The position numbers and the translations under genes were made by a program. Shown here piece by piece: positions 19,879 to 26,587 of a DNA stretch of 34,170 nt. Below the pieces are notes generated by a model. The model saw only the letters and a program-made list of their open reading frames with translations, did no database searches and was not told where the DNA came from. The number at the start of each line of letters is the position of its first letter. Within the stretch, counting starts at the first letter, position 1. This stretch comes from a virus (taxonomy: Duplodnaviria > Heunggongvirae > Uroviricota > Caudoviricetes), in IMG/VR virus record IMGVR_UViG_2706796290_000001, positions 1 to 34,170 of that record; one strand, given 5' to 3'.

Positions 19879-20193
19879 GTGTATTTAGAACTAGTAGAAA
19901 ATGAAGCATTTAGCCAGATTGGTACAAACCGAAAGGTTATCTTCAAATTTGGTGCAAAATGGTGCTCTGGTTGTAAAGCGATAACTCCAGTCCTCAAAAA
20001 ATTATCTGAACAAAATCCTGATATTGTCTTTGTAGATATCGATATTGAGCAATCGAAAGGACTAGCTGAAAGATTTAATGTTCAGACCTTACCAACTTTC
20101 ATATCTTTCCAAGAGTCCTTAAAGAAGGATACCATTGTAGGTACTCCTAAAATTACTCAGTTGAAAGAAATGATCACAAATATGCAAAAATAA
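19879..20193 (+). CDS. trx: thioredoxin, 104 aa
   Basis: WCSGC active site, FNVQTLPTF cis-Pro motif; GTG start after GGAGG (track start lies inside the tRNA). Confidence 0.9.
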   Translation: MYLELVENEAFSQIGTNRKVIFKFGAKWCSGCKAITPVLKKLSEQNPDIVFVDIDIEQSKGLAERFNVQTLPTFISFQESLKKDTIVGTPKITQLKEMITNMQK

Positions 20194-20344
20194 TAAAGAT
20201 AAGCAAACACGTTTCTAAAACCTTTAGTTTAAGGTTTTTCTCCAACCCCACTAACCAAATAACTGTTATGGATGACACAAGTCAATAATAGGGAATAATT
20301 AAGGTTAGTGGGTTTTCTTATTTATAATGACATTTCGTGTAGAT

Positions 20345-20411
20345 TTAAGAGGTGGTGCTTACTTGTCCTAGGCATCACCCCTTAAGTTATCAACATAGAG
20401 GACAAGCTATG
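20345..20411 (+). promoter_or_regulatory. SD-sequestering RNA pseudoknot in the HNH leader
   Basis: 17-position stem 20345-61/20369-85 with one mismatch; loop CTTGTCC complementary to GGACAAG at 20400-06. Confidence 0.7.
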
Positions 20412-20903
20412 GAAGAAATTTGGAAGCCTGTTGAAGGTTTTGGTGGCTATGAAGTTAGTGATTTGGGTCGTGTACGTAAGGTTGACGGAACTATTGTTAA
20501 TCTATTCAACCATCCGCAAGGATACCTAAAAGTAGCCCTTAAGGTTGCTGGCCAAAAGGTTAGTAAGAAGTACGTGCATAGGCTTGTAGCTGCTGCATTT
20601 ATACCTAACCCAGACAACCTTCCTTATGTAAATCATAAGAATGGCAAGCAGTGGTGTAATGAGGTTGATAACCTTGAGTGGATATCCTCTAAAGATAACC
20701 ATACACATGCTCGTGAGACTGGTCTTATTGACTATTACAAGTCACACCGAGTAGTTTCTGTCGAGGATGTACGATACATACGTAAGCATATAAAACCTTA
20801 CGATAAAGAATTCGGTAATGGTGCTATTGCAAAGCGATTGGGCTTAAGCCGAGACCAAGTTACTGACATTGCCCTGTACCGGAATTACAAAGACGTGATA
20901 TAG
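20409..20903 (+). CDS. free-standing NUMOD4-HNH homing endonuclease (I-HmuI-like), 164 aa
   Basis: EEIWKPV...YEVSDLGRVR (NUMOD4); VHRLVAAAF...VNHKNG...NLEW (HNH); ATG after GAGGA. Confidence 0.9.
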   Translation: MEEIWKPVEGFGGYEVSDLGRVRKVDGTIVNLFNHPQGYLKVALKVAGQKVSKKYVHRLVAAAFIPNPDNLPYVNHKNGKQWCNEVDNLEWISSKDNHTHARETGLIDYYKSHRVVSVEDVRYIRKHIKPYDKEFGNGAIAKRLGLSRDQVTDIALYRNYKDVI

Positions 20904-20912
20904 GAGGTATTA

Positions 20913-22905
20913 ATGTCGAATATATTTGCACCGTGTAGTCCAGTGCAAGCAAAGTTACTGCAAAGTGATGCAACAATTACAGTTTATGGTGGGTGAATAT
21001 AGGCTCCTTTAAGTAGTAATACTTATCGAATAACCTTGTGAAATGCTGGAAACCCCTTAGAGCCTTGAGTACCGAAGTGTAACAACCTTAAGGATTGGGC
21101 AATCAGCAGGGAAGCCTCTTATTAGAGGAACCCTCAACGACTATCGAAAGGGTAACGAACCGAGTAGAGTAGGGGCAAGTGTCCCGAAGTGCAAGGCACC
21201 TCAAGTAGGTGAAGATATAGTCTGGACTCATGGGAAACCTTGAGCATGCAATTGGCTAATGTGCTGTTGCATGGGTTGGCTCTAACGAAGCCTTCTTAAC
21301 ACAATCACTATGGGGTCTGCGAAAACCTATGGAGGTCTACTAAGACACCTTCAATATGTAAATAGTCCTCATTATGTTGGGTGAAAATACATGCCCCTTT
21401 AAGTGGTGACACTTATCGAATAACCCCTCTAATTGCTGGGAACCCTCTTTGAGGCAATCAGCAGCCAAGCCCAGCAGGGAAGGTTCAACGACTATTCCGA
21501 CAGGAAGTACACTCAAGTGAGTGGAAACGGGGGGCATCTCGCAGAGATGATGATATAGTCTGATCTACATGGTGACATGTAGCAAGGTTAAAACCTTGGA
21601 GTTAGCTTAACGAGCTAACACTAACAAAATGATGTTATCCGTAAAAATGAAGTAGTTCTGAGGGCTGGTGGTGGTGCTTTTGAAGAAGCCAAAGCTTTAT
21701 ACAAGGCATTTGAGCCGAGAGTTAAAATCACAGAGAAACCTATGAGGTTTCGCTTTCCTTCTGGTGCTGTAATTAACTTTGCAGGTGCTGAAGATGAGAA
21801 AGCTATGGAAAAATATCGTGGTCTTAACTTGACTGGCGTGATGGTCGATGAAGGTACACAGTTATCAGAAAGACAAATTTGGTTCTTGATCTCTCGTTTG
21901 CGTAACGGTAAAGATCCAAACATTATGCCAAATATATGGATTACATGTAACCCTGACCCTGATAGTTATTTGTTTGAATGGGTTAAGTGGTATTTATATC
22001 CTGTAGGGCATCCTCTTGCTGGAAGACCTGATAAAGATAAGAATGGATTAAAAAGATATTTCGTATCGACTCCAGAAGGTTTAGTTTGGAGTGATAATGA
22101 ACAGGAATTACTTGATAAGTATCCGCATTTATTTACAAAAGGGACTAGACCACTAAGCTTTAGATTTATTGGTGGTACAGTTTACGATAACCCACCTCTT
22201 CTTAAGAACTCACCTCAATATCTTCAAAACCTACTCCAACAGAAAGACCGAGTAGTGCGAGAACGTGAGTTGTACGGCAACTGGTTTGCACGTAGGGAAG
22301 ATTCAAGTTACTTCAACAGGTCTTGGTGTGAGATAGTTGATAAGCCTCCTGAAAGGGTCCGTAAAAGGGTTCGTTCTTGGGACTTGGCTTTCACATTACC
22401 AACTGAGACAAACCCAAACCCCGATTATACCTGTGGTGTTCGTCTGAGTAAAGATGATGAAGGTACAATCTATGTTGAAGACATGGTTCTTGAAAGGGTT
22501 GGTTCTGGGCAAATTATTGAGTTAATTGCAAAGACTGGTCTAGAAGATGCTGAGATGTTTGGTGTTGTTGAAACAACAATCCCTCAAGATGCTGGTGGTA
22601 TGGCTAAATTTGCAGCTAGGGATATGGCCTCTAAGCTAAGAGAGCATGGTGTATCTCCTATTGTAGTTCCTGTAGGTAATAAAGGCAAGCTCGTTCGTTT
22701 TATTCCATTCTCAGGTGCAGCACAAAATAAACATGTGAAGATTGTACGTGGTGATTGGAATGCAGCCTTCTTTCATCAGTTAGAAGCTTTTGGAAGTGGA
22801 AATAAGGCTGTGCACGATGATGCTGTCGATGCTGTTGCTGATGCTTATAAAAGAGTAGCAGAAAATAGAACGATTGACTATGCCATCGACTTAGCAGTTT
22901 TATAA
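20913..22905 (+). CDS. terL: terminase large subunit, join(20913..20994,21308..21382,21632..22905), 476 aa after splicing
   Basis: Splicing restores Walker A VYGGSMGSAKT; Walker B VMVDEG, TCNPD coupling motif, RuvC-like RSWDLA and HDDAVDA. Confidence 0.93.
20995..21307 (+). mobile_element. group I intron 1 (IA2-like, ORF-less, 313 nt, terminal A)
   Basis: P AAATGCTGGAAA 21041, Q AATCAGCAGG 21101, R TCAACGACTA 21134, S AAGATATAGTCT 21212; U.G at the 5' splice site. Confidence 0.92.
21383..21631 (+). mobile_element. group I intron 2 (IA2-like, ORF-less, 249 nt, terminal G)
   Basis: P AATTGCTGGGAA 21431, Q AATCAGCAG 21456, R TCAACGACTA 21485, S ATGATATAGTCT 21550; omega-G 21631; P10 UACAU region pairs with exon AUGU. 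Confidence 0.94.
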
Positions 22906-26482: not shown

Positions 26483-26587
26483 TTTTAAGATATTTACGAA
26501 AAATAGTCAAAAGGAATTGATGGTGGGTGGGATGAATTTGTTTCGCCACTCATCCCATAACACTTTCAAATATGAGGAATTTATAAT

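Follow-up and report, generated by a model that had tools for sequence, protein, structure and literature searches.

Homing endonucleases need enough expression to spread, without harming the phage or disturbing the genes they sit in, and to our knowledge the control of free-standing homing endonucleases is largely unknown beyond a few T4-type cases. A long RNA hairpin just upstream of an HNH endonuclease gene in an Acinetobacter phage, with a loop exactly complementary to the Shine-Dalgarno (SD) region of that gene, raises the question of whether loop and ribosome-binding site pair in the mRNA, and what such pairing would mean for translation of the endonuclease. The stretch of DNA analysed here (the window; 34,170 nucleotides) is part of a virus record of 98,170 bases from an Acinetobacter baumannii phage of the AM24/Herod/Bestia/Mithridates group, with 97% identity to Herod by blastn.

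The HNH gene is carried by a cassette inserted ahead of terL

In the window, a tRNA array containing a GOLLD RNA is followed by a thioredoxin gene with its end at 20193, 215 nt of spacer, the HNH gene and, after a gap of 11 nt, terL, which heads the late operon. The GOLLD RNA within the tRNA array (RF02032, 16682-17048) matches the full model with 217.6 bits and an E-value of 1.7e-60. The HNH protein is 98.8% identical to that of Herod. We take the ATG at 20409 as its true start because the NUMOD4 match begins at residue 3, homologs open with MEEIWKP, and the annotated Herod CDS is a colinear ORF of equal length (495 nt).

Four relatives, AM24, Ab15, Bestia and Mithridates, have no HNH gene between the thioredoxin gene and terL; Herod has the same leader-HNH cassette as the window. 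Identity of these four relatives with the window breaks off past GGGTTTTCTT (20319), the shared sequence is regained within exon 1 of terL, and the 3' end of the cassette is approximate because the terL ribosome-binding site and first codons differ too. The cassette comprises 25 nt including a TATAAT hexamer, then the hairpin, the ribosome-binding site and the HNH ORF (Table 1). These genome alignments show that the HNH ORF at 20409 is a mobile insertion.

Two further features of this neighborhood were observed. The terL gene of the window is split by two group I introns (20975-21244, 78.8 bits; 21360-21582, 96.6 bits) and is uninterrupted, at 1431 nt, in AM24, Ab15, Bestia and Mithridates; its exon 1, beside the HNH insertion, differs from that of those four phages at many synonymous positions, as expected of a co-conversion tract or of target-site immunity. 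Separately, the first ~30 nt of the NUMOD4-HNH ORF (ATGGAAGAAATTTGGAA..., 20409-20440) are conserved at the nucleotide level in many phage records, spanning Enterococcus, Bacillus, Staphylococcus and Acinetobacter phages, to a degree that exceeds prediction from protein identity.

Table 1. Coordinates of the leader, the cassette and related leader loci (window positions unless a contig is named)
Feature	Coordinates	Strand	Basis or remark
Inserted cassette (leader and HNH gene)	20320..20905	+	Alignment against AM24, Ab15, Bestia and Mithridates
TATAAT hexamer	20323..20328	+	Present in sequence; promoter role not supported
Hairpin 1, 5' arm	20342..20361	+	Sequence and fold; lower part 20342-49 AU-rich, upper part 20351-61
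Loop CUUGUCC, anti-SD element	20362..20368	+	Sequence; covaries with the site in AM24/CRR8/KissB and contig L012
Hairpin 1, 3' arm	20369..20388	+	Sequence, fold and alignment
Linker, 11 nt	20389..20399	+	20394-98 can pair with 20407-11
SD GAGGA of the HNH gene	20398..20402	+	Sequence
Loop-complementary site GGACAAG	20400..20406	+	Covers the 3' half of the SD and most of the spacer
NUMOD4 + HNH_3 homing-endonuclease gene, 164 aa, I-HmuI-like	20409..20903	+	PF07463 (9.8e-10), PF13392 (4.7e-07)
tRNA-adjoining leader-HNH loci	L058:1078-1221, L003:600-702, L002:560-664, L178:714-872, L179:740-869		Aci05, Ab15, AM24, CRR8, KissB
Three-way-junction leaders	L209:300-400, L215:300-400, L229:290-400, L233:300-400		IMG/VR contigs

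The hairpin loop is complementary to the SD region of the HNH gene

Hairpin 1 forms a 20-bp stem spanning 20342-20388, read from the sequence and recovered in the ViennaRNA fold, with an energy of -22.6 kcal/mol for the hairpin alone. Within 20345-20361/20369-20385, 16 of 17 positions are paired, two of them as G-U, the sole exception being A20350 opposite C20380, and three extra pairs extend the stem to 20342/20388. The reverse complement of its 7-nt loop recurs exactly as the site GGACAAG, which overlaps the GAGGA motif; the spacing from GAGGA to the ATG is 6 nt. Direct reading of the sequence bears out the initial annotation in its description of the stem, the loop and the exact complement at the SD; U20369 and A20399 could supply the eighth pair of its proposed extension.

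The stable hairpin stops 9 nt short of GAGGA, and the SD is not in its stem. The only stem that touches the SD and the AUG is that of hairpin 2 (20394-20411), a weak 5-bp stem between CAUAG (20394-98) and CUAUG (20407-11) that appears in the ViennaRNA minimum-free-energy fold at -4.0 kcal/mol. Its loop, AGGACAAG, contains the GGA of the SD, and its 3' arm includes the start codon.

The site at 20400-06 is the only copy of GGACAAG in the genome within a translation-initiation context; among the remaining copies, considered as potential trans targets, none lies at a start codon. The loop begins with CUUG, which fits the YUNR U-turn consensus. According to PMC4485353 (citing Franch 1999), the YUNR U-turn motif speeds loop-initiated RNA pairing in antisense systems. 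By analogy, the CUNG start of the loop may play a U-turn-like role, speeding loop-initiated pairing here.

In a single genome, such a match is barely beyond chance. The exact hairpin/complement pattern occurs once in the window and in none of 100 shuffles. The 98-kb genome as a whole contains 768 hairpins with a 7-nt loop and a stem of at least 6 bp, for which ~1.5 downstream complements are expected by chance and two loci were observed; for stems of at least 10 bp (25 hairpins), 0.047 are expected and one was observed. The second locus, at 26529, was rejected, its loop and complement being merely two arms of one larger hairpin. The complementarity in this one genome is thus marginally significant, and we accept the loop-site pairing as real because it is conserved and covaries in relatives.

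Compensatory changes preserve both helices in homologous leaders

A leader homologous to that of the window precedes other HNH genes in Aci05, Ab15, AM24, CRR8 and KissB, and a 42-nt stretch around the SD and start codon is 93% identical to the corresponding region of a different HNH gene in Aci05 and Aci01-1. A covariation search upstream of these homologous HNH genes, suggested when the pairing was first noted, found complementarity kept in 7 of 7 leaders, with two compensatory pairs. In Aci05 and Ab15, loop CUUGUCC and site GGACAAG are kept, and the stem sequences differ yet still pair. In AM24, CRR8 and KissB, the loop reads CUCGACC and the site GGUCGAG, again exact complements, reached through two compensatory pair changes, U-A to C-G and U-A to A-U. 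None of the 7 pairs of the loop-site helix is broken in any of the 7 leaders, 2 of them having both partners exchanged, and the variants stay complementary in leaders that are only ~80% identical (Aci05 against AM24), which substantiates the earlier claim of loop-SD pairing. The two changes within the Acinetobacter set are probably one evolutionary event, common to AM24, CRR8 and KissB.

The stem behaves likewise. All 8 pairs of the upper stem are intact in the 7 leaders, four of them covarying, and across alignment cells the whole structure is 92.6% paired, against 37-44% in every slid register. Between Aci05 and CRR8, 7 of 69 leader columns differ, and 6 of those 7 make up three compensatory pairs, a placement with P ~1e-4 under random placement alone. 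The stem of hairpin 2 shows a single one-sided change, U-A to U-G in AM24, which has a GUG start, and pairing is kept. G-U pairs are common in the stem across leaders, and the covariance-model score is ~16 bits on the minus strand compared with ~100 on the plus strand; these two features argue for selection on the plus-strand RNA. Taken as alignments of homologous leaders, the data show that the stem of hairpin 1 and the loop-site helix are both under selection.

The leader travels with HNH ORFs of different types

Next to the NUMOD4-type HNH protein of Aci05, 45% identical to that of the window, the relatives include a 138-aa protein with HNH_3 only in CRR8, which is 25% identical; one leader type serves both NUMOD4-HNH and HNH_3-only ORFs. 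The leader-HNH genes of the relatives occupy a different genomic place from the HNH gene of the window: in Aci05, Ab15, AM24, CRR8 and KissB, the leader begins at most 4 nt past a CCA terminus belonging to a tRNA or to a degenerate tRNA-like gene (Table 1). The position of these CCA-adjoining cassettes suggests homing into tRNA arrays, with tRNA processing setting the mRNA 5' end. Conservation among the leaders sets in at the hairpin base, ACATAGAGG in the linker region is invariant in 7 of 7 leaders, and the linker ACAUAGAGG is invariant in the aligned leaders.

A covariance model of the leader matched 7 of 9 records, with one copy each, all with such an HNH gene, and found no leader in Bestia or Mithridates; across the 9 records examined, the model thus shows the leader solely together with HNH ORFs. 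Weak matches of the model elsewhere in the genome (81164 and others) were rejected as unrelated promoter regions, and nothing significant was found at 51 distant HNH loci. Exact leader patterns in the CUUGUCC and CUCGACC forms had no match in IMG/VR. Framework patterns with free loops likewise had none in IMG/VR and only chance matches in the metagenome and genome collections; among the chance matches of one such pattern, 1 of 10 had a loop complementary to its site. An initial inverted-repeat scan, broad in design, lacked the specificity to be of use. Only ~10 members of the family were found, to which the pattern scans of IMG/VR and of the metagenome and genome collections added none.

Predicted hiding of the ribosome-binding site recurs in more distant HNH genes

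Two IMG/VR contigs, L012 and L014, encode NUMOD4-HNH proteins 42-43% identical to that of the window. Their leader has an 11-bp hairpin with loop CUCGUCU, followed 19 nt later by AGACGAG, which overlaps a GAGGAG SD and is enclosed as loop sequence by a second hairpin of 6 bp. By eye, the 5' arm and loop of L012 match the CRR8 leader at 13 of 18 bases; the second stem differs from CAUAG/CUAUG though it is at the same place. Homology of the leaders is likely, and a position-by-position correspondence is uncertain because the L012 site lies at -18, not at -9. Over the three loop variants, C1, U2, G4 and C6 are constant and positions 3, 5 and 7 vary, with the site always matching. A pattern modelled on the L012 leader matched just the two known contigs.

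Of 94 unique HNH-homolog leaders, 16 contain a hairpin loop with a complement of 6 nt or more within the last 30 nt ahead of the start, where 3.3 ± 1.7 are expected when loops and targets are permuted between loci. Other arrangements are among these 16. Four IMG/VR NUMOD4-HNH contigs (L209, L215, L229 and L233) have a three-way junction of P1, P2 with a conserved loop AGUAGCU, and P3, the loop of which varies between the four and complements two direct repeats just 5' of the start codon. Rfam applied to the related loci reported tRNAs only, and no family for these three-way-junction leaders. Two hairpins 5' of the HNH start with mutually complementary loops occur at L009:1400-1512 (GUUGCAG/CUGCAAC) and at L017:1065-1176 (GUGGAAG/CUUCCAC), candidate kissing loops that covary between the contigs.

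Enterococcus-phage HNH homologs offer a further variant, in which an anti-SD, CCUCCUUU, sits between the -35 and the -10 of a local promoter. In Enterococcus phages EF36P1 and KEN18 (L296:150-285 and L298:150-280), an anti-SD CCTCCTTT lies between TTGACA and a TAT(T/C)AT box and pairs with the ribosome-binding site AAAGAGGAGG. As read from the sequence, this is the classic I-TevI type of arrangement, in which the transcript of the local promoter would be without the inhibitory arm. Given the 16 of 94 leaders and the classic arrangement in the Enterococcus phages, hiding of the ribosome-binding site appears as a recurrent trait of this HNH gene family, and loop pairing as one form of it.

No promoter, terminator or catalogued RNA was found on the leader

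The proposal in the initial annotation that the TATAAT at 20323-28 starts the transcript does not hold up: the hexamer has no acceptable -35, is unlisted by the promoter scan, and lies outside the module common to the other leaders, which start at most 4 nt after a tRNA CCA. The scan reported nothing within the hairpin, phage-specific promoter types being outside its coverage. An intrinsic terminator was also rejected, as the sequence after the stem, ATCAACATAGA, has no T-run and the terminator scan lists nothing there. Rfam reported nothing on the leader when the whole window was run at the gathering score, and spurious miRNA matches only when 20194-20460 was run at E up to 10. The idea of a riboswitch-like ligand pocket likewise found no support, either in Rfam or in the alignment, which has no conserved junction or bulge besides the linker.

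Just upstream of the cassette, a 73-nt element (20247-20319) is identical in 6 of 6 aligned phages, and the neighboring 3' UTR varies. In this element, a T-run comes directly behind a 10-bp long-range stem, CCCACTAACC/GGTTAGTGGG, the loop of which contains a promoter-like ATGACA-16 nt-AATAAT. The element may both stop read-through from upstream and give rise to the late terL transcript, and the promoter-like site at 20272-20299 in this fully conserved element may be the source of the transcript here. One RNA-library contig spans 20300-20440, a kind of evidence that cannot show RNA ends or prove transcription; other RNA-library contigs miss the hairpin and the site because they start at 20411 or later. 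The single raw-read RNA run has no reads on the stretch.

A probable cis-acting lock on endonuclease translation

We consider it rather probable, at about 0.7, that the leader is a pseudoknot or kissing-loop lock acting in cis to lower translation of the endonuclease, repression being judged from the position of the pairing. Between 20342 and the ATG at 20409, ~70 nt make up a conserved, modular mRNA leader that travels with HNH ORFs in Acinetobacter phages. Its long hairpin would present the loop CUUGUCC for pairing in cis with GGACAAG, the weak stem CAUAG/CUAUG could additionally tie up the AUG, and the resulting H-type pseudoknot or kissing-loop complex would block 30S binding. Such a block is to be expected because the site covers the GGA of the SD and most of the spacer, to 2 nt before the AUG. 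A potentially harmful endonuclease would thereby be held low despite heavy transcription, here at the head of the late terL operon and in the relatives within tRNA arrays. Relief, if there is any, might come from RNase III cutting the ~20-bp stem or, alternatively, from competition of the AU-rich lower stem with loop pairing. The promoter scan revealed no promoter for an unlocked transcript, and conservation sets in at the hairpin base; the most economical reading is a constitutive damping of endonuclease translation on transcripts reading through from strong upstream units, which in the relatives are the tRNA arrays.

The energetics and geometry of the lock leave room for more than one topology. 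The 7-bp loop-site helix contributes ~-13 kcal/mol by nearest-neighbor stacks, and the pseudoknot lies 3-5 kcal/mol below the best nested fold in 4 of 4 leader types, a rough estimate that ignores sterics and adds to the stacks the Dirks-Pierce pseudoknot penalty. An H-type pseudoknot needs the 9-11-nt linker to span an 18-20-bp stem (~50-56 Å), for which, by our own geometric estimate, the linker may suffice only if almost fully extended; full stem and loop pairing may be mutually incompatible. A kissing complex with hairpin 2 is impossible unless the AU-rich lower stem opens; the upper stem only, together with loop pairing, gives ~-22 kcal/mol, which is less favorable than the nested fold at -26.6. 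Because of this geometry and the energy of the upper-stem form, loop pairing may be transient, may occur on processed RNA, or may alternate with the lower stem. The H-type pseudoknot first proposed for this locus stands in part: its loop-SD helix covaries, but the topology may be that of two kissing hairpins, the second being CAUAG/CUAUG.

A bolder version, tentative and in our view rather doubtful, is that the leader belongs to a widespread uncatalogued class of portable translational locks, in which a hairpin loop pairs at the initiation region and which pass, together with endonuclease ORFs of unrelated families, between phages whose hosts are unrelated; the lock may work as a two-state timer. 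Here the AU-rich lower stem and the loop-to-ribosome-site pairing would be mutually exclusive, and the endonuclease would be made only briefly after transcription or RNA processing, by RNase III or in tRNA maturation, and not just damped.

Alternative explanations

The pairing might be real and its main role another one, in that it organizes or activates initiation, or in that the long hairpin is an RNA-processing or stability element. The hairpin could be an RNase III site, its 18-20-bp stem with one mismatch or bulge being about the size of an RNase III substrate, or a 5' stabilizer after release of an upstream tRNA, as, given its position at most 4 nt after a CCA end in five relatives, tRNA processing would leave it at the 5' terminus of the mRNA. 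Activation of translation by a pseudoknot of this loop-to-ribosome-site kind is known from IncI-alpha repZ, and GA, the 5' half of the SD, remains unpaired in the leader. However, the paired GGA and the spacer to 2 nt before the AUG must be single-stranded for the 30S subunit, the upstream leader peptide that the repZ mechanism demands is absent, and a stabilizer or RNase III site leaves the covariation between loop and initiation region unexplained, so that we regard a main role other than repression as unlikely. A regulated switch, in which a small ligand or a protein (for example the HNH enzyme, or an RNA-binding protein of phage or host) stabilizes or opens the pseudoknot, appears quite improbable. 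Its topology resembles that of SD-sequestering pseudoknot riboswitches, the linker ACAUAGAGG is invariant, and a lower stem competing with loop pairing would yield two states; yet hairpin 2 and the SD account for the conservation of the linker, there is no conserved internal loop or junction for a pocket and no Rfam riboswitch match, and specific autoregulation sits badly with one leader serving HNH proteins only 25% identical.

Two further explanations dispense with the RNA pairing. Selection at the DNA level, in which CTTGTCC/GGACAAG would serve a protein as the two inverted halves of its operator or recognition site and the hairpin would be incidental, could draw on the fact that the half-sites change with the downstream protein family, CUCGACC/GGUCGAG going with 138-aa HNH_3-only proteins. 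We nevertheless consider it highly improbable, as a distance of 31-33 bp, occupied by a 40-bp palindrome, separates the half-sites, HNH enzymes of the I-HmuI type bind asymmetric sites as monomers, and NUMOD4 proteins only 45% identical (window against Aci05) have identical half-sites; moreover, G-U pairs in the stem and the plus/minus asymmetry point to RNA-level selection in the same element, and the IMG/VR leaders with one loop and two direct-repeat complements fit RNA pairing, not an operator. Least credible of all is chance complementarity beside a commonplace stem-loop, for instance an insulator or what is left of a terminator. The ~1.5 configurations per genome expected for stems of at least 6 bp would allow it, but only 0.047 are expected at 10 bp or more, the stem lacks the T-run and the scan hit of a terminator, and chance would have to reproduce the compensatory loop and site changes of the homologous leaders and of the distant homolog.

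Significance and comparison with known systems

The lock reading would place on this gene a modular leader, the same one serving endonucleases only 25% identical, and a candidate family for RNA catalogues. It is directly testable, as the cultured A. baumannii phages AM24, Herod, Aci05, Ab15 and CRR8 carry the leader, and it bears on the annotation and engineering of therapeutic Acinetobacter phages, in which the cassette can lie immediately ahead of the terminase gene and the late operon.

Several known RNAs share elements of this architecture. In the preQ1-II and SAM-II riboswitches, in rpsO/S15 and in the T4 gene 32 operators, a hairpin loop pairs at or near the ribosome-binding site and controls initiation. 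Like these H-type pseudoknots, the leader has a loop that would pair with a downstream strand overlapping the SD, with support from covariation; unlike them, it has neither a ligand pocket nor a known protein partner, lies on a mobile endonuclease gene, and combines an 18-20-bp stem, a fully paired 7-nt loop and a short linker without an Rfam match. The IncI-alpha/IncB repZ/repA pseudoknot is a translational activator that requires a leader peptide to be translated. There too, an upstream hairpin loop pairs beside the ribosome-binding site, whereas the present leader has no leader ORF and the pairing covers part of the SD itself. Fully paired 7-nt loops occur in kissing complexes. The CUNG starts of the 7-nt loops (CUUG, CUCG, CUCG) fit the YUNR motif as given in PMC4485353, a likeness to hok/sok, CopA/CopT and RNAI/RNAII; in contrast to those trans-acting pairs, loop and partner belong to one mRNA, the partner lying 31-33 nt downstream.

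The closest functional precedents are the T4-type phages, in which hairpins sequestering the ribosome-binding site, combined with internal late promoters, are described on I-TevI, I-TevII, I-TevIII, segB and mobE (PMC2988022, PMC3014915); loop-to-ribosome-site pseudoknots on homing endonucleases are absent from these two reviews. A single hairpin has been published that leaves the ribosome-binding site unsequestered, that of seg43(25) of Aeromonas phage 25; its loop, GAUAAA, has no complement in the ribosome-binding site, so that loop-site pairing is not its explanation. By analogy, translational repression of the endonuclease fits the I-TevI, mobE and segB precedent (PMC2988022, PMC3014915). 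As on I-TevI, I-TevII, I-TevIII, segB and mobE (Aeh1), a cis RNA structure lies at the initiation region under read-through from strong upstream transcription, and the presumed purpose, as for the T-even leaders, would be to limit or delay endonuclease synthesis. Unlike the T-even leaders, the window has, by the promoter scan, no promoter inside the structure to give an unlocked transcript, and where the T-even SD lies in a stable stem, here a hairpin loop would pair with it. The leader would thus represent a second structural solution, loop-to-ribosome-site pairing as opposed to a simple hairpin, and one that is backed by compensatory mutations.
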